Virus record (IMG/VR): IMGVR_UViG_3300025364_000002
Strand: one strand, 5' to 3'
From: a virus
Taxonomy: Duplodnaviria > Heunggongvirae > Uroviricota > Caudoviricetes
DNA length: 64,000 bases
Position 1 is the first letter of the stretch. Every line of letters starts with the position of its first letter. The notes beneath the pieces are model-generated. The model was not told the origin of the DNA and made no database searches. It saw only the letters and a list, made by a program, of their open reading frames with translations. Of the stretch, positions 13,110-54,399 are shown in pieces. A program made the position numbers and the translations under genes.

Positions 13110-14525
13110 TTACAATAGTGTTGGAAATAGAACTACATCACGGAGAGTGGTTTGGTTAGTCATAATGGCAACAAATCTGTCCACTCCCATTCCCAAGCCT
13201 GAACAAGGTGGCATGCCATATTCCATGCACTCAAGAAAATCTTCCTCAAGCATCATGGCCTCGTCATCGCCGTCCTCACGGGCAGCCATCTGTTCCTCCA
13301 ACAACTGTCGCTGTAGAACAGCGTCAGTAAGCTCCGTGTAACACTTCACAAGCTCCCAGCCATTGACAATAAACTGCCACTGCTCGACCGTGCGGCCGTC
13401 TTCGCTTCGCTGTGCGAGAGGACTCATGTGAGCCGGGTAATCCTTGAGGAAAATCGGCTGAACAAGGTTTGGCCGCACCTTCTCCTTAAACATTTCGTCG
13501 ATTTCCTTTGCAGAACTCAACGACCAGGGCGAAATTCCAGTATATTGCTCAAATACCGCAGCATAAGACCTTACCGGAGGATCGGTAAAATCAAGCTTGG
13601 TCCCCTGATATTCGACAATCATCCTCTTAATAAGAGGAGAAGCGGGATCGTTTGAATATTCATGACCGGCCGCAAAGAAAAGGTAAGACAAAAGCATCTT
13701 AAACAACTCAAGGTTGTCCATATAACTCATGTAAGCGCCATACCACTCAACCGAGGTAAACTCCTGCAAGTGGGAAGGATCGACCCCTTCATTGCGAAAG
13801 TTCTTTCCGATCTCATACACTCGATCAAAAGAAGCTGCAACAGCACGCTTCAAGTAAGTCTCAGGTGCAATACGAAGATAAAGATCGGCATCCAGTGCAT
13901 GATGATGCGTCTGAAAAGGACGAGCCTGGGCTCCTGAAGCCCGAGTCTGTAAGATCGGGGTTTCCACTTCCATGAAACCGTAGCGCTCCAGAAACTTACG
14001 AAGCTCCGAAACAATCCGAGAACGGGTCACGAAAACCTGCTTCACATCAGGGTTCATGACAATATCAAGGTAACGCTTACGAAGACGTAGCTCCGGATCA
14101 ACAATTCCATCAACCTTATTTGGGAAGGGATGGATTGGATCACGGAGAACCTTGAAAGCACGGTTTACCAAAACCGTCTTCTCGCCAGTAGTGGAAGTCC
14201 ACATTTCACCTTCAATGGTGATAATACTGCCCATCTTTACAGCCTTCATCCACCCCTTGAAGCTTTCGGGGGTTTCACGCTTGTTGAAACAAAACTGAAT
14301 CTTTCCAGACTGATCGACAAGCTTTCCGAAAGCAATGGAGCCAAGTCGTCGAAAATTAACAACCCGACCCGCAAGAGTAACAGCGTGGCCGTCCCTAAGC
14401 TCAAGAGCATTGCTGGCCATCCAAGTTTGGTAGACGCCCTTTTCCACAAACTCCGAAAACTTCGGCTTGCGGACGGTCTCGGCCAACTGTTCAAGAGTAC
14501 CTTCTTCATTACTTAGAGTAGACAT
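13110..14525 (-). CDS. lysS: Lysyl-tRNA synthetase, class II (N-terminal OB anticodon-binding domain plus class IIb catalytic core)
   Basis: Class IIb motif 2 KNFRNEGVD...EFTSVEWYGAY; 471 aa; strong SD (AAGGGAGAGA) upstream. Confidence 0.8.
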   Translation of the reverse strand: MSTLSNEEGTLEQLAETVRKPKFSEFVEKGVYQTWMASNALELRDGHAVTLAGRVVNFRRLGSIAFGKLVDQSGKIQFCFNKRETPESFKGWMKAVKMGSIITIEGEMWTSTTGEKTVLVNRAFKVLRDPIHPFPNKVDGIVDPELRLRKRYLDIVMNPDVKQVFVTRSRIVSELRKFLERYGFMEVETPILQTRASGAQARPFQTHHHALDADLYLRIAPETYLKRAVAASFDRVYEIGKNFRNEGVDPSHLQEFTSVEWYGAYMSYMDNLELFKMLLSYLFFAAGHEYSNDPASPLIKRMIVEYQGTKLDFTDPPVRSYAAVFEQYTGISPWSLSSAKEIDEMFKEKVRPNLVQPIFLKDYPAHMSPLAQRSEDGRTVEQWQFIVNGWELVKCYTELTDAVLQRQLLEEQMAAREDGDDEAMMLEEDFLECMEYGMPPCSGLGMGVDRFVAIMTNQTTLRDVVLFPTLL

Positions 14526-18363: not shown

Positions 18364-18735
18364 TCAAGACTCCAGGTATTTCTCTAGTTCAACCAGAACC
18401 TTGTTGGCAATTTCTTCTGCTGAATCATCTTCAACTTCATCAGCCAACGTAAGCTCATAGAAAACATCATCCCCTCCATGATCAAGGGTGATGTTATACT
18501 TTTCCTCAAGAGAGGAAACCAGCTTGCCAAATTCTTCTGCGAAGAAGATGTTTTCAGGATGATATTGGTTGCTCACAAGCGACCTTTCCTCGATATCATT
18601 CTCATCTTCTTCAGCAAAAGGATTCCATTCGGTCCACAGGACTCGTAGTTTTAGGTTGTGGGTCTGCATCTTATTCTCCCAATACAATTTTGTCGAACGC
18701 TTTACTCTTTTTTGAGGTTGAAGTTGTAGACACAA
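18364..18735 (-). CDS. Acidic hypothetical protein
   Basis: 123-aa ORF rich in D/E. Confidence 0.45.
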   Translation of the reverse strand: MCLQLQPQKRVKRSTKLYWENKMQTHNLKLRVLWTEWNPFAEEDENDIEERSLVSNQYHPENIFFAEEFGKLVSSLEEKYNITLDHGGDDVFYELTLADEVEDDSAEEIANKVLVELEKYLES

Positions 18736-19439
18736 CAGTCAAGTCCAATGGCAACTTCGAGCACCAACAGATCTTTTTCTACAACTTTGTTTTTTGCCTG
18801 AAACTTTGCCCTGATAGGAAAATCAGTTCGCAGAGAAATCGAACAGACCTCCATCCACTTGTCGCCATTATCAACCTCAACATCCATTGTTTTTTGGCTG
18901 TAAGATGGAAGACGGTCAGAAACAACAATTCTAGTTGGCAAATGAACCATTTCTGCAATCATTTTTCGAACAGGTTCTAGCACTGCCGAATGATAGTCAT
19001 TTAGTGTATCTGCTGTAAAAATGCACTGAAATTCCTGCTGATAAAACTCTTTCAGCCGCATGTTTTTGGTAACCTGGTCCTGTTCCCGTCGAAAACTTTT
19101 ACCGGTCTGCCAAACCACAAAAGGTGGGCGAGTTGGCTTTGAAAGTCCCCGGAGTAGATGGGCTGCGTATGCATACGAACCAGGCGTGGTTTCAGGTCGT
19201 AGAACGAGTCCAGGATTTTCCCCTTCTTGAAACCAAACATCCTCACGTGTATAGTTTGGGTTAATCAGAGTTTCAGGAGTAAGGATGGGAGTTTCAACCT
19301 GAAAAAAAGCCCAGGCCGGATTCATTTCGAGCAATGCCGTCTTTAGTTCAGCCAAAAAGTGTTGCTCAAACACTCTTCGTAGTCTGATTTCACGTTCAGA
19401 CCAGAAAATAAGACCGTTGCTGTTGTACAGGCTATCCAT
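18702..19439 (-). CDS. Class IIa aminoacyl-tRNA-synthetase-like catalytic core (truncated paralogue lacking an anticodon-binding domain)
   Basis: Motif-2-like WQTGKSFRREQDQVTKNMRLKEFYQQEFQCIF (fRxE...R..EF.Q.E pattern of the HisRS/ProRS/ThrRS/GlyRS group). Confidence 0.5.
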   Translation of the reverse strand: MDSLYNSNGLIFWSEREIRLRRVFEQHFLAELKTALLEMNPAWAFFQVETPILTPETLINPNYTREDVWFQEGENPGLVLRPETTPGSYAYAAHLLRGLSKPTRPPFVVWQTGKSFRREQDQVTKNMRLKEFYQQEFQCIFTADTLNDYHSAVLEPVRKMIAEMVHLPTRIVVSDRLPSYSQKTMDVEVDNGDKWMEVCSISLRTDFPIRAKFQAKNKVVEKDLLVLEVAIGLDCCVYNFNLKKE

Positions 19440-19720: not shown

Positions 19721-19749
19721 ACAAAAAAAGGACGCCGAAGCGTCCTTTT
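19721..19749 (-). terminator. Rho-independent terminator (A7-GGACGC-cgaa-GCGTCC-T6)
   Basis: Hairpin and flanking runs read directly at the stop of gene 19750..20478. Confidence 0.6.
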
Positions 19750-20478
19750 TCAGTTGTATTCTGTTCCGCCCTTACGGGTGAGGTAATCACCGCTAACAGA
19801 CTTTAGCTGAACACGGCCAATTTCTTCGCTCCAGCGTTCTACCGTAGGTCGAACAACAACACCCTCACGGATATGCATTTCCTTACCGGAAATAGTCTCG
19901 AAGCCGTCAGTGTACTCGTACAAAACCTTCTTCGAGAAGGGCCCACGGTAAAGCACCGGAACACGCTGAAGACCAAGTCTCTTGCAAGCCGCATCAAGCT
20001 CAGAGTCGTTCAAATAACTGCCAGACCCTGGACGTCCAACATAAATATCAAATACTCTAAAACCGATCTCGACGTCCTTGTCGGCAGAACTGCCATAAGA
20101 AAGGTCCTGAACACCACGTCCAAAAATCTCTCCAAGAACGTAAACCGGCTGTGGATCGAAATCGTGTTTTAGCTGATGACCAAAAGCAAATGAAATACGG
20201 TTGTCCATGTTGTAGTGTCGAGCGACACGCACGTATAGATTCGTCTTGTTGGCTTCGGCATCATACTTCATCGCCAGTCCACGAGCCGAAAGACCCTTGG
20301 ATGAGATAATGAGACGGCCCTCCTCGGGATGGGCATCCCTCGGCGGCATAAGGCCAATCATACACCAGGTGTTATGAACAACAATGCCTTCAGCAATATA
20401 GTTGTTGTTGCCACCATCAATCTCTAAATCATAGAGATCACTATCACTTTCAACATACTCAATCTTAACACAGCGCAT
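19750..20478 (-). CDS. C-terminal half of a fractured Rnl2/Rnl5-family RNA ligase: 36-aa IntC (split-intein C fragment) followed by the C-extein
   Basis: N-terminus MRCVKIEYVESDSDLYDLEIDGGNNNYIAEGIVVHN|T is intein blocks F/G ending HN plus nucleophile T. The extein carries ligase motif III VYVLGEIFG, motif IV EGVVVR and motif V LKSVS. It is in the same frame as ORF 20773..21567. Confidence 0.8.
   Translation of the reverse strand: MRCVKIEYVESDSDLYDLEIDGGNNNYIAEGIVVHNTWCMIGLMPPRDAHPEEGRLIISSKGLSARGLAMKYDAEANKTNLYVRVARHYNMDNRISFAFGHQLKHDFDPQPVYVLGEIFGRGVQDLSYGSSADKDVEIGFRVFDIYVGRPGSGSYLNDSELDAACKRLGLQRVPVLYRGPFSKKVLYEYTDGFETISGKEMHIREGVVVRPTVERWSEEIGRVQLKSVSGDYLTRKGGTEYN
20371..20478 (-). other. 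IntC, split-intein C-terminal fragment (36 aa)
   Basis: Length and sequence style match natural IntC fragments (e.g. DnaE IntC, 36 aa, ending ...N). Confidence 0.75.
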
Positions 20479-20764
20479 TTTTTACTCTTTCTATCGTTTT
20501 TTCTTTTTGATTGTTCCAATCACTTTCCCAAACAATTAGAACTTTGTACCCTCTTTTGAGCAAGGCGGCGGTGCGCCTTTTATCTCTTTTCCATTGTTGC
20601 CCAACAGTCCTGGAAATCCAAGAGCAATATTCGCTTGGGTCGTGAAATTTTGTTGGATTACAATGGAACATATCTCCATAGAATTCCAAGATAACTTTCT
20701 CACTTTTCAACAAGCCGTCTACGATAAACCCTGATATAATTTCTTCACGATTTGACGCCTGCAT
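20465..20764 (-). CDS. Free-standing Vsr-like (very-short-patch-repair fold) homing endonuclease inserted between the intein halves
   Basis: FYGDMFHCNP...WKRDKRRTAALLKRGYKVLIVWESD parallels the Vsr FxDGCFWHxH...RDxxxxxxLxxxGWxVLxVWE pattern; different frame from the flanking exteins. Confidence 0.65.
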   Translation of the reverse strand: MQASNREEIISGFIVDGLLKSEKVILEFYGDMFHCNPTKFHDPSEYCSWISRTVGQQWKRDKRRTAALLKRGYKVLIVWESDWNNQKEKTIERVKNALC

Positions 20765-20772
20765 GGGACTTG

Positions 20773-21567
20773 CTACATGATTGGACTTTCAATATCTTCA
20801 TCAGGCAAAAGTTTGCCAGCTTCCACCCACATTTGTCGGTCACGTGAATAAACGGGGTGATCCTCGGTTAAGGTGAGAGTAGAACCGTTTTCTAAGGTAA
20901 GCTTTACCCATTTTTTATCTTCACTGTTTAGCCGACGCATGCGACCAGTAATAGGTCGCTCAATATATTCCTTGCTTTGTTCATTATAAGATAAAACCGA
21001 CTGAATTGTTTTATCAGCCACTACTTCTGCGATAGACCGCTCGCTTCCATCTACAAGTCGGACCATACTTGCTTCATGCAAGCATCCATGAAGTTTCTCA
21101 GTGAAAACAACCTCTTCACCTTCCTCAAGAATGTGAGGAAAACGCTTAAAATTTTCGATATCGTACTTCAAGGTACGGTCCTGACCAGCAGCGAACACCT
21201 CACCGGAAAGATGGGCCGGAATTGGAGGCTCCCACTTGGTAATTCCAAGAATATTAGCAACATCAGCACCCTCTTGCCACTCAGGACGTGCAGGATACAC
21301 AAGTCCCTGTGAAAGGATGCCACGAAGACGAATGGCCTTTACACGATTCTTTGCCTTTCCGGCAAGCTTACCCTCAAGACCCATTTCACGGAGGAGAGCC
21401 TGAGGAACGACAGCCTGTTCTGGAATGTAGGCAACGAGATCACCGCTCTTAAACTGGTCCTTGCGGACAATTGCTTGGTAATCGCCCACCTGGGCGAGTT
21501 CTAAAGCATCAGCATTGGGGTGTTCAAGAACAGTAATCCGTTCGACAGTTACAGAAAAAGTTGACAT
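20773..21567 (-). CDS. N-terminal half of the fractured RNA ligase: OB-like N-domain, then the nucleotidyltransferase motif I, then a 103-aa IntN
   Basis: ...FTEKLHG|CLHEASMVRLVDGSE...TLTLTEDHPVY...LLPDEDIESPIM*. KxHG is the ligase lysine-adenylylation motif. C1 plus TxxH (block B) is an intein N-fragment. The stop codon directly follows IntN. Confidence 0.8.
   Translation of the reverse strand: MSTFSVTVERITVLEHPNADALELAQVGDYQAIVRKDQFKSGDLVAYIPEQAVVPQALLREMGLEGKLAGKAKNRVKAIRLRGILSQGLVYPARPEWQEGADVANILGITKWEPPIPAHLSGEVFAAGQDRTLKYDIENFKRFPHILEEGEEVVFTEKLHGCLHEASMVRLVDGSERSIAEVVADKTIQSVLSYNEQSKEYIERPITGRMRRLNSEDKKWVKLTLENGSTLTLTEDHPVYSRDRQMWVEAGKLLPDEDIESPIM
20776..21084 (-). other. IntN, split-intein N-terminal fragment (103 aa)
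   Basis: Begins with Cys after KLHG; has block A (CLHEASMV) and block B (TLTLTEDHP). Confidence 0.75.
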
Positions 21568-21838
21568 AAATTCCTCTAATGAGTTGGTTAAGAACCATTA
21601 ATCACTAAGAAGTTATTGACTTAACTTTTCGATTACGAAAACGCCTAAAAATATGAACCCGATGTAACCCCCGACTGACAGAATTATCAGCGGGAACATC
21701 CGCAACACCAGGAGAAACAGAGCTATATAACATATAGCACATGCCACCAAGGATGTAAACACGAAAAGGGTACTTGGTGAATATTTCCTCACGTGTCCCG
21801 CCGGGACACATTTCTGCCCCTCATTTAATAACTAGTTT

Positions 21839-35986: not shown

Positions 35987-37573
35987 CTAACCTCGATATC
36001 GATTAATCAGGGACTCCACCTCAGTCTGGAGTAAATCACTTCTTCGACCCGCAGAAAATGGCATTTCATCGAATTCACGGATTACACGAGCCTCACAGGT
36101 CATGAAATCATCAGTGAAGCCAGGGCCGAAAGGTTCATCAGAAGTGCCATCGTAATAGGTAACCAATGCATCATCACCAAGTTCGCCAGGTGCCGCAAGA
36201 GTGACCCCAGAGGTAAGGGCAATATCATCACGGAGAACCATGCATTCTGGGAGAGTCTGCTTACCAGGAGAATTGCTCAACTTGATAACTGGACGATCGT
36301 CGTTGCCGACAGCACAGAGAGCAAATTTGGTGCTCATGTGGTCCCTGTTGATATTGTTACGAAGATGCCCGCCAATACTGAAAATACCACATCGCCATGG
36401 AACAAAACCGGCCGCAAGAGCTGCGTCGGTAATTTGAAGAACACTATCAAACGATTCACCGTTACCAACAATAAATCGAAGCGTGGTAGAAACATGACGT
36501 GTGACACCATCAGCACACAAGTGCTCAGCCATAAGCCCAGCCTGATGTGCCTTTTGTAGAGTACCAATCACCATATCTGTCGAATCGCCTGAATCAGGAC
36601 GGGCAACAACGGTTCTTCCAGAGCCATCCGCCTGAGCCCTAAGGGCAAGGGGGATAAGGTGTTTCTCAAGCGCAGCCCAATAATCATAACAATCACCAAC
36701 CATGCTGAGTAATTCGTGATTGTCAGCAGTATCGTACATGTTCTCATAACAGTCGCCTTCGACTGCATAACCCTGCACGATGCGATGCGCAAGAGCTTTC
36801 ACCGAAGAGCCAAAAGCAGCTGGTGCGCCATTTTTCCAGTTCTGGAAAGCAGCACGGAACGTGTCCGTACCAAACCAGACATAGTTGTGAACCCGACCCA
36901 CCAATTCCGATTCCATTGGAGATGCTGCTGCCCTGTCGCCGAAATCATGAATCATGAGTCGGGCAAAAAACATGCACTCCTCGTCGCTAACCGAGTCAGG
37001 CTCAAATTTCCTGATGAGATTGTAGGCATACTTCAAAAAGTGTCGAGCGGCGGTCAAACGCTCCGTGGCAGCCCAAACATGCAGCAGGGTGGACTCGAAC
37101 CAAGGAACCAGCGGTCCAAACCCAGGCTCTGTAGCCTCCACCCTGAGGAATGGCTCGTGCGGATAAATTACAGAGCCTTCGGGCATTCCAACGACCTTGA
37201 GTGGAAGGTAGCCTCCGTATTCCTTGACGACTCGTCGCCACATTTCCTCAGGAAATTCGAAATCGTCAAAAGATCCGTCGTACTTTGCCTTTCGGCCCTT
37301 CAAAAATTCGATAGTCTCATCGATTTCGGAATTGGTGATCGGATCGTAAAAAAGCAAGTCGCAAAGCTGTTGCAAACCAGCAAAGACAATACGCTGGTCT
37401 TCAGGCGAATAAAACGGCTCATGTGCATGAGGAAACTTCCTGAAAGTACCGTAATACTTGGAATTTTCCGTAGCCTCTTGGCTCTCGAAGGTAAATCCGT
37501 TAATGGTGTAAGCGTCACTCCAGAGCATTCTGGGTGTTCTATGATATCTTCTTGCGGGTAGTTTCTTTGCCAT
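35987..37573 (-). CDS. nadV: Nicotinamide phosphoribosyltransferase (NadV/NAMPT-like, type II PRTase family)
   Basis: 528 aa with family-typical segments (IHDFGDR, long central PRTase core); GC-rich relative to flanks. Confidence 0.75.
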   Translation of the reverse strand: MAKKLPARRYHRTPRMLWSDAYTINGFTFESQEATENSKYYGTFRKFPHAHEPFYSPEDQRIVFAGLQQLCDLLFYDPITNSEIDETIEFLKGRKAKYDGSFDDFEFPEEMWRRVVKEYGGYLPLKVVGMPEGSVIYPHEPFLRVEATEPGFGPLVPWFESTLLHVWAATERLTAARHFLKYAYNLIRKFEPDSVSDEECMFFARLMIHDFGDRAAASPMESELVGRVHNYVWFGTDTFRAAFQNWKNGAPAAFGSSVKALAHRIVQGYAVEGDCYENMYDTADNHELLSMVGDCYDYWAALEKHLIPLALRAQADGSGRTVVARPDSGDSTDMVIGTLQKAHQAGLMAEHLCADGVTRHVSTTLRFIVGNGESFDSVLQITDAALAAGFVPWRCGIFSIGGHLRNNINRDHMSTKFALCAVGNDDRPVIKLSNSPGKQTLPECMVLRDDIALTSGVTLAAPGELGDDALVTYYDGTSDEPFGPGFTDDFMTCEARVIREFDEMPFSAGRRSDLLQTEVESLINRYRG

Positions 37574-42143: not shown

Positions 42144-42483
42144 GTCTAATCTCTTCTAAGTCCTGCTCAAAGAATATTAGTTTTCTTTTTCCTATTAGTA
42201 ATTCAACAGCTGGTTCATGTTCTCTTGATAGAAATGCAACTTGAACCTTTCTTAACTCCAGACCTATTAAGTCGGTAAAAATGTACTCAACCGGCAAAAA
42301 CTCTGTGTTGACCAAATATATTGTTTCATCTTCATCGAGTCCAAAAATGGACAATGTTTCAACTGGTTCTTTTCGCTGAGCGGCTAATATCGGATTGACA
42401 AAATCAGTTTTACTTATAGCCTCAAAAACTATAAGCAATGGATCACGGATGGAAAGTTTGCATCTGTAAAGTGCCATAGCCAT
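42136..42483 (-). CDS. Hypothetical protein
   Basis: 115-aa ORF. Confidence 0.4.
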   Translation of the reverse strand: MAMALYRCKLSIRDPLLIVFEAISKTDFVNPILAAQRKEPVETLSIFGLDEDETIYLVNTEFLPVEYIFTDLIGLELRKVQVAFLSREHEPAVELLIGKRKLIFFEQDLEEIRHE

Positions 42484-43246
42484 CTAAACGCTTTTTCATA
42501 ATTGCTACAGCATCTGGGTTTTCATCAACCAATGTTACGTTTCGTCCATGCATAGCCCCCGCCTCGCCAAGAGTGCCTGAACCCGCAAAGAAATCCAAAA
42601 GGTGTTCTCCAGGATTTGAGTGTACTTTTACTATGCGTTCGATTATAGCCATTGGTTTTTGAGTTGGGTAGCCTAGTCTTTCTTTACCGTTTGTTGGAAC
42701 GATAGTGTTCCACCAAACATCTGTCGGTGTTTTGCCTCGCTTAGCCTTCTCGGCACCAACAAGACCCGGAGCCATATATGGGATGCGATCTATCGCATCG
42801 TAGTTATAAGTATATTTTTTCAAGTCTTTTACATACCAAAGAATGTTATCATGTTTACAGGGCCACTTGGTTTTAGGTCTTCCGCCATAATCATACGCCC
42901 AAATTATTTCATTTTTGAACTTTTCTCTACCAAAAATTTTATCACAAAGCACTTTTACATAGTGAATTTCACGGTAATCCATATGAATAAAAAATGAACC
43001 ATCATCTGTAAGCAATCTTTTTGCTTCTTCAATTCTTGGCTTTATCCAATCTATAAAATCATCGAATTTATCTTTGTATGAACCATGATGACTTGATTGA
43101 ACCTTTTTTGTATTAAACGGAGGATCTATTACAATTAGATTAAATTTTTTATCAGGCAACGATCGCAATATTGGCAAATTGTCCCCTTGATAAATTTTAA
43201 TTGTTGGCATACAAAAAGTTTCCTTCTTTACTGTTTCTTTTGCCAT
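42443..43246 (-). CDS. DNA methyltransferase (N6-adenine/N4-cytosine class, DPPF motif)
   Basis: IVIDPPFN catalytic motif and C-terminal AdoMet-binding FFAGSGT. Confidence 0.8.
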   Translation of the reverse strand: MAKETVKKETFCMPTIKIYQGDNLPILRSLPDKKFNLIVIDPPFNTKKVQSSHHGSYKDKFDDFIDWIKPRIEEAKRLLTDDGSFFIHMDYREIHYVKVLCDKIFGREKFKNEIIWAYDYGGRPKTKWPCKHDNILWYVKDLKKYTYNYDAIDRIPYMAPGLVGAEKAKRGKTPTDVWWNTIVPTNGKERLGYPTQKPMAIIERIVKVHSNPGEHLLDFFAGSGTLGEAGAMHGRNVTLVDENPDAVAIMKKRLDGYGTLQMQTFHP

Positions 43247-43973
43247 TGATGATAGCTGAAATTACTGGCTGTGGAATTCCTAATACTTTTGCTGCTTCAT
43301 ATTGGCTTTCAAAAAATTCGGATGAACCATCGGAACGAATGTAAACTATTCGTCTTTTATTTCGTTTGGGGCTTTGTGCACGAGACATAGCTTTTTCAAC
43401 ATCTTCCATTTTATGAACAAAGGTCCAACCTTTAGCATATGTGGCACGACCTTTTAGAACATTTCTAATTGCTTTTTCGTTACAACCAAGAGCTTTTGCT
43501 GCTTTTTTTTGTGCGGCAAATTTTTTTATTTCTTTTGTTTTAACATTTATAGCTATCACTGCTTTACTGCCTGGTCTATTTGCAGCGATTTTTTTACAAG
43601 TTTCTAGGGGTAACTTCTTACCCAATTTCCTTTTACGCTGCTTTTCCTTTGTTTTTTTAGAAGTCTTTACTCCCTTTCGTCCACCTCGACCACCCTTATC
43701 AGAATTAATCATATTTAAGTTCGGCCAGAATTGTTGAATGTATTCAAATTCAGCTATGTAAGCCTCGTCTTCAGTTGAGAACTCTTTTATTAATTCTATT
43801 GATATACTATCTTTATATTTTTTAAGCCAATTCAACTTTCTTTTACGTTTTTTATCATAAAAATGTTGTTTTAACCGTTTTTCTAAAGTTTGGCCTGTAA
43901 CTCCGATATAAAATTTAGGACTTTTCGATGAAATGATTTTATAAAGCTTGTGCATATTAATATGTACGCACAT
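43197..43973 (-). mobile_element. GIY-YIG homing endonuclease with C-terminal NUMOD-like DNA-binding repeats (probable true start at 43955)
   Basis: KLYKIISSKSPKFYIGVTGQTLEKRLKQH (GIY-YIG core with catalytic R...H); repeated AAKxLG...(I)xNxLKG helix motifs at C-terminus. Confidence 0.75.
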
Positions 43974-48387: not shown

Positions 48388-48422
48388 TTTTTTTGCTTTC
48401 CAATTTGTTTCATCTTTTTAGC

Positions 48423-48496
48423 GAGACCTGTGGGATTTGAACCCACATCACTCCGGGTTAAAGCCGGCCGCATTACCAATTTTCTGCCAAGGTCCC
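48423..48496 (-). tRNA. tRNA with anticodon UUA (ochre-type suppressor tRNA; type I, 74 nt)
   Basis: Hand-folded: acceptor GGGACCT/AGGTCTC (one G-U), U8, D-loop with GG, anticodon stem CCGG/CCGG with 7-nt loop C-U-U-U-A-A-C (U33, anticodon UUA, A37), 5-nt variable loop, T-arm GTGGG-TTCAAAT-CCCAC, discriminator G. Confidence 0.65.
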
Positions 48497-52825: not shown

Positions 52826-53605
52826 TCAATCGTTTGGACCGACCCGAATAATACGATCAGATGCCTCGTAAATCAGCGCATTACGCTCTCTTGCACGCTC
52901 TGTAAAGCCTTCTACAGTTTCAAAGCTGCGACGCACTACAACATAAACCTTGGGCGTCCCAGGCTCTTCTACACGACGCTGACCTGGGTCAAGGTTGTGG
53001 TCGTTCTCTTCAACTGTATTGTATGACTCAAGAACTCGACGAAATACTCGTACAGTTACTTCTGGCACTGCCCTTGGAGCAGTGAAAACAACTCTTACAA
53101 ATTCTTCAGCCTCCCGAGTTCCTTCGTGGGTGGATACCGTCATCGTAACAGGAAATGGATAGGGATTTTCAATTACCAAATCTTTCGAACCCCAATCAAC
53201 TGTCGCATCCAAGCCAGGTCGAATATAGGTGCTAATTCTAGAATGGGGATGTTGTTCTATGATAGTCAAACCAGCATACATAGCAGCTGCGTAAATCGTA
53301 CTAGCAGTTTGACAGATTCCACCGCCATAATCACGTTCCATTCTACCGGAAATGATCACAGGTGCTTGACGAAAGCCTCTTGAACGTGTTCGTTCACCAA
53401 CAATATTATTAAATGAAAATTGTTCGCCAGGTTCAAGCCTGATTGTCGAGATAATTTCTGCCGTTCGCCTAATGTTGTGTGCTCGACCTCGGTAACGACC
53501 ATAGTCCCCATACCTAGTCTCGATGGACGAGAGTTCAACAGTTTGTGCCTGTACGTTCACAGGTAGTGAAAATACGACACCCAAGACAAAAATTAGCCTC
53601 TTCAT
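52826..53605 (-). CDS. Secreted VanW-like domain protein
   Basis: Signal peptide MKRLIFVLGVVFSLPVNVQAQ; GGGICQTASTIYAAAMYAGL matches the VanW GGGxCQxSTTLY motif; GC-rich gene. Confidence 0.6.
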   Translation of the reverse strand: MKRLIFVLGVVFSLPVNVQAQTVELSSIETRYGDYGRYRGRAHNIRRTAEIISTIRLEPGEQFSFNNIVGERTRSRGFRQAPVIISGRMERDYGGGICQTASTIYAAAMYAGLTIIEQHPHSRISTYIRPGLDATVDWGSKDLVIENPYPFPVTMTVSTHEGTREAEEFVRVVFTAPRAVPEVTVRVFRRVLESYNTVEENDHNLDPGQRRVEEPGTPKVYVVVRRSFETVEGFTERARERNALIYEASDRIIRVGPND

Positions 53606-53892: not shown

Positions 53893-53942
53893 GCTTTATT
53901 CCATAAAAAAGCCACACCATATAGGTGTGGCCTATTATTTAT

Positions 53943-54029
53943 TGGACCCGATCGGAATTGAACCGATGTCCTCAAGATCGCCTAAAAAAACTTCTACGTT
54001 ACCTAGTTTGATTTTCAGATTACCGGTCC
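53943..54029 (-). tRNA. tRNA-like element (87 nt): T-arm ATCGG-TTCAATT-CCGAT, acceptor GGACCGG/CGGGTCC (one mismatch), discriminator A; internal arms not resolved
   Basis: Reverse complement folded by hand; possibly a type-II tRNA or degenerate tRNA. Confidence 0.3.
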
Positions 54030-54399
54030 GAGGTATCAGACAACCAACCGGGTTCTTTCATTTGAAATCTTGATCAGACAGCCAATAGAAATCTAACTCT
54101 AGTCTAATCCAGTCCTAATAACGACGCCTTATAGAATGCAAGGACACTCAAGCTATAAGACGGCTCTCATCAAGCAGCGAGAGCAAGAGGTGCATTGTCT
54201 GCATTTATAATCGTTTATTGGATTTAAGTGGTTCTAAACACCCACCGTAACGCCATTTTTTCTTCTTACCCCAAGTCGAAACCAGTACGGGCCCATGTCA
54301 AAGAACAATACCTTGAGAGTATACCTAGTAAGTATTAGGTTGTAAACTGCTTGACTTCTTTCTTTTTGGTGTCATTTACTTCAAAATCTTGCTAAAAAT

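Follow-up and report, generated by a model that had tools for sequence, protein, structure and literature searches.

An RNA ligase gene of a jumbo phage, probably fractured by a split mini-intein and a truncated Vsr-like endonuclease gene

Organization of the Locus

The window analyzed here is a stretch of 64,000 nucleotides (nt) from the viral record IMGVR_UViG_3300025364_000002, with positions counted from its first letter, and its minus strand carries an RNA ligase gene that is interrupted by an intein. Three open reading frames (ORFs) make up the locus (Table 1), where ORF1 encodes the N-terminal half of the ligase (N-extein) followed by an N-terminal intein fragment (IntN), ORF2 encodes a short Vsr-like nuclease, and ORF3 encodes a C-terminal intein fragment (IntC) followed by the remainder of the ligase (C-extein). 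ORF1 and ORF3 share one reading frame and ORF2 lies in another, with a spacer of 8 nt between the ORF1 stop and the ORF2 start and an overlap of 14 nt between the end of ORF2 and the start of ORF3. In ORF1, the N-extein ends with ...VVFTEKLHG and is followed directly by IntN, which starts with CLHEASMV, continues through TLTEDHPVYSRD, and ends with EDIESPIM before a TAG stop codon. In ORF3, the 36-residue IntC, MRCVKIEYVESDSDLYDLEIDGGNNNYIAEGIVVHN (starting with MRCVK and ending with GIVVHN), is followed by a Thr and 205 further residues, which include the motifs VYVLGEIFG, FRVFDIY, EGVVVR, and LKSVS. An earlier note on this DNA, made from the sequence alone, had given the coordinates, frames, and sizes of these ORFs, all of which hold on re-reading of the sequence, and the 14-nt overlap of the middle ORF with IntC that it described is borne out by the coordinates. 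No second copy of the ligase, the intein, or the endonuclease is present in the 64-kb window, and an Rfam scan gave no match within the locus. The comparisons described below make it very probable that this Rnl5-type ligase gene of a jumbo phage is a fractured gene, in which a mini-intein at motif I has been split by a Vsr-like gene and the enzyme would be reconstituted by protein trans-splicing.

The Ligase Halves and Their Predicted Spliced Product

Both halves match the same model of the DRB0094 family of RNA ligases (TIGR02306), with residues 5-162 of ORF1 covering model positions 3-170 (E = 1.9e-43) and residues 52-235 of ORF3 covering positions 179-341 (E = 1e-27). In addition, an OB-like domain (PF21189) is matched in ORF1 and the RNA_ligase domain (PF09414; E = 1.7e-18) in ORF3. 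The cut-off of TIGR02306 (151.15 bits) is reached by neither half on its own, and it is passed by the protein of 367 amino acids (aa) that is obtained by splicing in silico, which scores 255.2 bits in a single stretch over positions 3-341 of 341. The closest solved structure is that of the Naegleria ligase NgrRnl (5COT), in which motif I (TVKLDGS) corresponds in the alignment to FTEKLHG|T of the spliced protein; the break therefore falls between G161 and T162, three residues past the catalytic Lys158 and inside motif I of the active site. These matches agree with the earlier assignment of an OB-like N-domain and motif I to ORF1 and of a ligase C-half with VYVLGEIFG, EGVVVR, and LKSVS to ORF3. 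Rnl2, which had been named there as a candidate family, is ruled out, as the spliced product scores 17.3 bits with TIGR02307 against a cut-off of 197.15. Because TIGR02306 is passed by the spliced product and the Rnl2 model scores so low, the host enzyme is classified as an ATP-dependent RNA ligase of the Rnl5/DRB0094 type, with a predicted activity. With DraRnl (DRB0094) of Deinococcus and with NgrRnl, the spliced product shares an N-terminal OB-like domain, a nucleotidyltransferase domain, and the lack of a C-terminal domain; it differs from both in being encoded in two pieces and in having KLHG in place of KLDG in motif I. The predicted masses are 29.7 kDa for ORF1, 27.3 kDa for ORF3, 41 kDa for the spliced ligase (367 aa), 11.9 kDa for IntN, and 4.1 kDa for IntC, and the predicted tryptic peptide across the junction is LHGTWCMIGLMPPR. 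The G+C content is 48-50% in the ligase exteins, 40.5% in the whole window, and 36-43% in the intein/endonuclease cassette, so that the compositional outlier is the host gene.

The Split Intein

As judged from profile matches, the two fragments that flank the break are the N- and C-terminal portions of one class-1 intein, with the split at the position where endonucleases are canonically inserted. The 103-aa segment scores 30.1 bits with the model for the intein N-terminal region (TIGR01445; cut-off 24.5), the 36-aa segment scores 24.9 bits with the model for the C-terminal region (TIGR01443; cut-off 15.6), and IntN fused to IntC scores 41.9 bits with PF14890 (Intein_splicing; cut-off 35.8). 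The residues of class-1 splicing are all present, namely Cys1, T-E-D-H in block B, the Asp of block F, the terminal His-Asn, and Thr+1. The earlier reading of a 103-aa IntN after ligase motif I, terminated by a stop codon, and of a 36-aa IntC ending in GIVVHN before a Thr nucleophile is thus upheld by scores above the cut-off for each fragment. Solved inteins are matched along both fragments, including NrdJ-1 (E = 6.4e-7), DnaX, and gp41-1, and two of these closest solved inteins, NrdJ-1 and gp41-1, are themselves split inteins of fractured genes. Both are efficient trans-splicers.

Authenticity of the Locus and the Intein-Free Allele

The exact ORF1 protein is encoded on 19 contigs (ENA ERZ27249346, ERZ27249351, and ERZ27249355; JGI 3300000910 and 3300001101), the longest of which is ∼461 kb, and the source is a jumbo (giant) phage of about this size. 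Four contigs that were assembled independently, from different samples, are identical base for base over a region of 1921 nt, and an exact match to a sub-stretch of at least 1500 nt is found in a shorter, fifth contig; the locus is consequently not an artefact of assembly or sequencing, since four independent assemblies gave the same sequence. Past the stop of ORF1 and ahead of the ORF3 start, the ORF1 frame is closed by six stop codons, with each of the three kinds represented, which excludes a hidden contiguous intein. The possibility, raised in the earlier note, that a contiguous intein would emerge after sequence correction is ruled out by the identical assemblies together with these six in-frame stops. 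A tRNA with the anticodon TTA, which would read UAA, is encoded at 48421..48496 (-) and is called tRNA-Stop by ARAGORN (Rfam tRNA, 54 bits). Recoding of stop codons, which this tRNA and the TAG of ORF1 might suggest, was rejected because the ORF statistics fit the standard code: TAA, TAG, and TGA all end long ORFs in the window, and the coding density is normal. An apparent ORF of 683 aa that arises when TAG is read as sense is a read-through of an intergenic region.

Numbers with the prefix L denote related viral loci or contigs (from IMG/VR in the case of L009 and L010), and those with the prefix P denote metagenome protein representatives. When the 714-nt cassette is removed from the window, an ORF of 1104 nt and 367 codons remains. 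Its alignment with the intein-free ligases of L093 and L091 contains no gap, and the nucleotide identity is 70-79%. An identical junction, EKLHG|TWCMIGLMPPR, is found in L093, where the DNA of the empty site reads ...GAGAAGCTTCACGGC|ACCTGGTGCATG..., and L093 is syntenic with the window, its downstream neighbor resembling an aminoacyl-tRNA synthetase and being 85% identical. The comparison with uninterrupted alleles of related phages that had been proposed earlier is thereby provided by L093 and L091, and the empty homing site is defined, because the spliced ORF is gap-free against a syntenic intein-free locus with an identical junction.

Selection and Conservation of the Fractured Halves

The window and L009 are both fractured, and their synonymous sites are saturated (proportion of synonymous differences, pS, 0.71-0.83). 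The corresponding proportion of nonsynonymous differences (pN) is 0.17 in the N-extein, 0.21 in IntN (where pS is 0.76), 0.17 in the endonuclease core, 0.09 in IntC, and 0.18 in the C-extein. Low pN in combination with saturated pS shows that purifying selection has acted on the exteins and on the two halves of the intein during the fractured state. The cassette and the exteins are equally diverged between the two loci, which argues for vertical descent since their split. Conservation across a wider range of sequences follows the same residues: in 22 N-halves that are 39-80% identical overall, Cys stands directly after K-x-H-G in all, C162, T234, and H237 are invariant, and the C-terminal end ...EDIESPxx is common to them. 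With ORF3 as the query, a complete HMMER scan of 1.84 billion representatives gave C-halves in at least 12 clusters (at 50% identity), with lengths of 223-246 aa, each consisting of a Met, an IntC ending in HN, and then Thr or Ser. Fractured RNA ligases are not a one-off, as dozens of relatives are present in metagenomes.

Table 1. Features of the fractured ligase locus in the window.
Feature	Coordinates	Strand	Evidence
Shine-Dalgarno-like AGAGGA, 4 nt 5' of the ORF1 ATG	21572..21577	-	Read from the sequence
ORF1, 264 aa, ligase N-half and IntN, TAG stop	20773..21567	-	TIGR02306 3-170, PF21189, TIGR01445, PF01079 Hint
N-extein, 161 aa, OB-like N-domain and motif I (K158-L-H-G161)	21085..21567	-	Aligned to NgrRnl 5COT as far as motif I
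IntN, 103 aa, Cys1 and block B T-E-D-H	20776..21084	-	TIGR01445, 30.1 bits (cut-off 24.5)
Whole cassette, 714 nt: IntN, stop, endonuclease ORF, IntC	20371..21084	-	Removal gives a 1104-nt ORF, gap-free against L093/L091 ligases
ORF2, 99 aa, Vsr-like (EDxHD family) nuclease core, internally deleted homing-endonuclease gene	20465..20764	-	Profiles, AF2 fold, L009 alignment
Point of the in-frame deletion (504 nt) in the endonuclease gene, 3' of codon 4	20752..20753	-	MAFFT alignment with L009
ORF3, 242 aa, IntC and ligase C-half	19750..20478	-	TIGR01443, PF09414 RNA_ligase, TIGR02306 179-341
IntC, 36 aa, block F DLYDLEID and block G VVHN	20371..20478	-	TIGR01443, 24.9 bits (cut-off 15.6)
C-extein, 206 aa, Thr+1 first, rest of the nucleotidyltransferase domain	19753..20370	-	PF09414, E = 1.7e-18
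Intrinsic terminator hairpin GGACGC-TTCG-GCGTCC and T7, directly after the ORF3 stop	19723..19750	-	Detected on the + strand; bidirectional

The Middle ORF and Its Deletion

ORF2 matches the profiles of Vsr (TIGR00632, E = 2.6e-6), DUF559 (E = 7.6e-7), and PHROG endonucleases (E-values down to 4e-13), in the longer profiles just over the C-terminal part (positions 264-344 of 353 in PHROG 22677 and 54-119 of 119 in TIGR00632), and with 27.7 bits against 97.85 it fails the cut-off of TIGR00632 for the Vsr mismatch-repair family. An AlphaFold2 (AF2) model built from an alignment of 23 sequences has a predicted local distance difference test score (pLDDT) of 91.7, and its best matches in the PDB are E. 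coli Vsr (1CW0; Foldseek probability 1.00, template modeling score 0.68), followed by 1VSR; the 98-residue chain of the isolated catalytic domain of I-Bth0305I (3R3P) is also matched, with a probability of 0.97. The family-invariant residues D16, E27, G30, N36, P37, W58, D61, V75, W79, and D82, together with H34, are kept, and the conserved EDxHD-type residues D16, E27, D31, H34, and D61 are all present. We take D16, H34, and D61 to correspond to D51, H69, and D97 of Vsr, and E27 to be a family-specific Glu.

The nearest fractured relatives, L009 and L010, have the same TAG stop, 8-nt spacer, and 14-nt overlap, with an endonuclease of 267 aa. A MAFFT alignment of the DNA of the window and L009 is collinear but for one gap, which places window position 20752 against L009 3817-4320. 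The gap of 504 nt is in frame and removes 168 codons just past codon 4, which accounts for the difference in length (267 - 168 = 99 aa). Full-length relatives in RNA-ligase loci have 267-341 aa and include an N-terminal region with CxxC...CxxC and helices, which is absent from ORF2. The long form is taken to be ancestral, because the relatives carry versions of 267-341 aa and the window differs by a single in-frame gap. ORF2 is thus, by alignment, an in-frame 168-codon deletion derivative in which the start codon and the catalytic core are kept and the presumed DNA-binding region is lost. The earlier description of a Vsr-like middle ORF accordingly stands with respect to its profiles and fold (1CW0 and 3R3P), and the ORF is not of full length, as 504 nt are deleted relative to L009.

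The C-terminal nuclease fold and the E/D/H/D constellation of ORF2 are shared with I-Bth0305I (PDB 3R3P), the isolated catalytic domain of which is of the same size; ORF2 differs from it in lacking, through the deletion, the N-terminal DNA-binding region of the NUMOD/helix-turn-helix type. E. coli Vsr (1CW0/1VSR), the best structural match, differs from ORF2 in having an N-terminal segment, which is absent from ORF2 together with most of the Zn ligands, and the genomic position of ORF2 is that of a homing endonuclease and not of a repair gene. A word-indexed search with ORF2 alone gave 2 proteins, and a profile of the endonuclease core was needed to reach 33. The closest endonuclease relative, P0122 (74% identical), is encoded on a 1099-nt JGI contig and ends at the contig edge; its sequence GDVFYCNP shows Tyr at the position of the catalytic His, which suggests inactivation in that lineage.

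Proposed Mechanism and Alternative Explanations

In the proposed mechanism, a mini-intein would have invaded the DNA that encodes ligase motif I (K-L-H-G|T), and a Vsr-like homing-endonuclease gene at the canonical endonuclease site would split it into an IntN of 103 aa and an IntC of 36 aa. The three ORFs may be co-transcribed, as a Shine-Dalgarno-like site precedes ORF1, a terminator follows ORF3, and neither a terminator nor a promoter was found between them. ORF1 (29.7 kDa) and ORF3 (27.3 kDa) would be translated apart, after which IntN and IntC would associate to form the HINT fold, and Cys1, the Thr and His of block B, the terminal His-Asn, and Thr+1 could carry out the trans-splicing chemistry. 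The product would be the 41-kDa ligase of 367 aa, in which Lys158 from ORF1 is joined to the remainder of the nucleotidyltransferase domain from ORF3. Since a HINT domain of 139 aa beside the catalytic Lys would obstruct the active site, covalent splicing explains the locus most economically. Dependence of the ligase on the split intein would keep the latter in place. Several observations weigh against parts of this account. Trans-splicing of the ORF1 and ORF3 products is itself inferred from their sequences, and a single-sequence AF2 run on fused IntN and IntC reached a pLDDT of just 33.6, so that the HINT fold rests on profiles. Electrostatic pairing of the fragments is known in split inteins of the DnaE type; here, the net charge of both fragments is acidic (-5 and -6), and charge pairing is only local (∼ +4 in IntN 43-61 and -7 in IntC 6-21). 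In a consensus scan, promoters and terminators occurred at chance counts, no minus-strand promoter was found inside the operon, and the only convincing terminator was the hairpin after ORF3. With respect to ORF2 as a remnant, the core contains no stop codons, and the window branch has 5 substitutions against 8 for P0122, with no excess.

Whether ORF2 is still active is the alternative that carries most weight, and the most likely reading of ORF2 is a homing enzyme that has been weakened or is dead, at an intermediate stage of endonuclease decay; the impaired remnant is given roughly twice the confidence of an active enzyme. A minimal homing endonuclease, able by its core alone to form dimers, recognise the DNA of motif I, and maintain cassette mobility, is judged rather unlikely, even though the invariant and catalytic residues are all kept in a confidently predicted fold, the deletion is in frame and spares the start codon, pN relative to L009 (0.165) matches the low level of the exteins without acceleration of the window branch, and other core-only ORFs of ∼100 aa occur in the fractured DNA ligases L089 and L090. 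In I-Bth0305I, the N-terminal region makes long-range and largely non-specific contacts, the catalytic domain on its own forms a stable dimer, and specificity is provided mostly by the dimeric nuclease domains (PMC3239194), so that the 99-aa protein could keep weak activity. However, every full-length relative in an RNA-ligase locus has the N-terminal CxxC...CxxC and helical region that is absent here, ORF2 has no Shine-Dalgarno site before it, and related loci decay further, to a 51-aa ORF and to untranslated remnants, which makes the truncation resemble a step to loss; moreover, a deletion stays in frame by chance in one case out of three, and the low pN could reflect a recent deletion.

The remaining alternatives concern the ligase as a whole, and each is far less probable. 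The two halves might work unspliced, with the intein fragments as a non-covalent dimerisation module, and non-covalently assembling fragmented phage enzymes are indeed known (PMC3045599), the intein-less fragmented nrdA of Aeh1 being an example of such a gene. It is improbable for the ligase, in which the active site would contain the HINT domain of 139 aa at a distance of three residues from the Lys that is adenylylated, and in which C1, the Thr and His of block B, the terminal HN, and the Thr or Ser at +1 are invariant in dozens of diverged halves although association would need none of them; the relatives NrdJ-1 and gp41-1, in addition, splice efficiently in trans. Slightly more improbable still is a pseudogene that was killed by the mobile element and yields no functional product, since the physical interruption of the gene and the degraded state of the endonuclease, which would fit such a history, stand against strong purifying selection on exteins and intein halves between fractured lineages with saturated synonymous sites, ORFs that are intact in all assemblies, a spliced product that passes the equivalog cut-off with all motifs in place, and the wide occurrence of the fractured form. 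An artefact, or stop-codon recoding that masks a contiguous intein with the endonuclease inside, has a negligible probability: the TTA tRNA and the TAG of ORF1 could be cited for it, but at least four independent assemblies are identical, the ORF1 frame is closed by six stops of three kinds with ORF2 in the other frame, all three stop codons end long ORFs at a coding density that is normal in the standard code, and relatives have the same three-ORF layout. Trans-splicing of a fractured, Rnl5-type ligase thus remains the preferred reading of the locus.

Forms of the Intein at One Ligase Site

Four architectures are located after K-x-H-G of the ligase in related loci. In form (a), which belongs to the intein lineage of the window, the Vsr-like genes encode 267 aa (L009/L010) or 341 aa (L078), and L066 also belongs to this form with an unrelated middle ORF of 260 aa. 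This ORF appears HNH-like by eye and has no match in Pfam or NCBIfam; it is not assigned to HNH, and no family is named for it. Form (b) is defined by a second intein lineage (CADxxT...TGNHPVWLP), with Vsr-like genes of 281-331 aa (L011/L012, L055, and L061), and it includes stages of decay, with a 51-aa remnant in L062 (3849-4004) and an untranslated remnant only, in a spacer of 158 nt, in L015 (3820-3977) and L070. In form (c), a mini-intein of lineage (b) is contiguous (L085:3001-4530), and in form (d), large contiguous inteins contain LAGLIDADG motifs (L077:2983-5037 and L081:2971-5103). Across these contigs, the endonuclease forms a decay series from 341 and 267 aa through the 51-aa remnant to the untranslated one. 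Together, the forms retrace within a single host gene the stages of gene breaking as modeled by Dassa et al. (2009).

The histories of intein and host disagree. For example, the IntC of P0166, P0212, and P0207 is 94%, 86%, and 83% identical to that of the window, while their C-exteins are just 38-41% identical, and P0156, which has the most similar C-extein (59%) among 12 C-half representatives, carries the other intein lineage. Similarly, the N-halves show the same disagreement between intein and host. Such discordance suggests that the inteins have moved horizontally between diverged ligase genes.

Two NAD+-dependent DNA ligases, L089 (206-2939) and L090 (1120-3804), were found through their short, core-only Vsr-like ORFs of 98-100 aa, and both are fractured at K-x-D-G|C, the homologous position in motif I. 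In a comparison of seven inteins, their split inteins have RNA-ligase inteins as nearest neighbors (44% identity to L078 and 42% to L015), and they are closer to those of L078 and L015 than the latter are to the intein of the window. A tentative reading of these two loci, which relies on pairwise identities and is given somewhat less than an even chance, is that split inteins and Vsr-like genes may move between enzyme families by targeting the motif I DNA (K-x-D/H-G) that covalent nucleotidyltransferases share. If true, this would be a natural and repeated case of extein switching across families, guided by an active-site motif common to a superfamily, and accompanied at one site by a decay series (full endonuclease, core-only, remnant, and none) as well as by mini-intein and LAGLIDADG forms.

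Comparison with Known Systems and Significance

The fractured-gene hosts that have been described include gp41, IMPDH, DnaE, NrdA, NrdJ, DNA ligase, terminase, and one unknown protein (Dassa et al., 2009; PMC2677866), and RNA ligase is absent from these eight. A full-text search of the literature, with incomplete coverage of journals, found no natural split intein in an RNA ligase, so the earlier proposal that RNA ligase is a new fractured-gene host agrees with both sources. None of 50,697 GenBank phage records has this intein in a ligase; a megablast search of these phages with the locus gave no match, and a tblastn search with IntN gave distant (27-31%) DNA-polymerase inteins and one hypothetical protein, with no RNA-ligase intein. 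The published fractured genes (gp41-1, NrdJ-1, IMPDH-1, NrdA-2, and others) have the same three-ORF order with the endonuclease in its own frame, and phage origin and a split at the canonical endonuclease-insertion site are common to them and the window; their overlap between endonuclease and IntC is 6-69 bp, a range that includes the 14 nt found here (PMC2677866). The window differs from them in its host, a predicted ATP-dependent RNA ligase of the Rnl5 type, and in its endonuclease, which is a 99-aa, core-only deletion derivative. A regulatory hairpin precedes the endonuclease start in 15 of 16 published fractured loci (PMC2677866); none was found 5' of ORF2, where the spacer measures 8 nt and folding of 20725-20835 gives z = +1.04, and the fold around the ORF3 start is marginal (z = -1.9). 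Contiguous inteins in RtcB-type ligases were reported in a 2025 survey of actinophages (bioRxiv 10.1101/2025.01.02.630785). The RtcB inteins of archaea and actinophages have an RNA-joining enzyme as host, as in the window, whereas RtcB belongs to an unrelated GTP-dependent family and its inteins are contiguous and mostly of the LAGLIDADG type.

The finding is mechanistically expected, and its value lies in intein biology and in the split inteins that it supplies. With it, an RNA-repair enzyme joins a short host list that has so far consisted nearly entirely of enzymes of DNA replication, repair, and packaging, and it identifies the motif I site of Rnl5 as an intein hot-spot with at least two intein lineages and four architectures. 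The truncated endonuclease and its decayed relatives document steps of gene breaking and of the homing cycle in one host gene, where the split intein would stay fixed as the endonuclease decays, because the host gene cannot lose it without a precise deletion. The relatives also form a large and diverse natural family of split inteins (Cys1 with Thr+1 or Ser+1, ∼100 and 36 aa), kin of the ultrafast NrdJ-1 and gp41-1, which could be mined for orthogonal protein-ligation tools. In public metagenomes, the two halves are annotated as partial RNA ligase or hypothetical protein, or have no annotation.

Neighboring Genes

Directly downstream of the ligase, a core fragment of a class II aminoacyl-tRNA synthetase (245 aa; 18702..19439, -) is encoded, which is 85% identical in the intein-free L093, and a full class II synthetase of the Asp/Lys/Asn type (471 aa) is located at 13110..14525 (-). 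A free-standing gene resembling GIY-YIG homing endonucleases with NUMOD (43197..43973, -) overlaps with its 3' end the start of an N6/N4 DNA methyltransferase gene (42443..43246, -) and represents a second footprint of a mobile nuclease in the window. The window also encodes a transfer-messenger RNA at 53940..54294 (-; Rfam, 127 bits) with the tag peptide ADNAPLALAA, as well as a NAMPT/NAPRTase-like protein of 528 aa (35987..37573, -) and a protein with VanW and G5 domains (52826..53605, -), the last two being auxiliary functions typical of very large phages.

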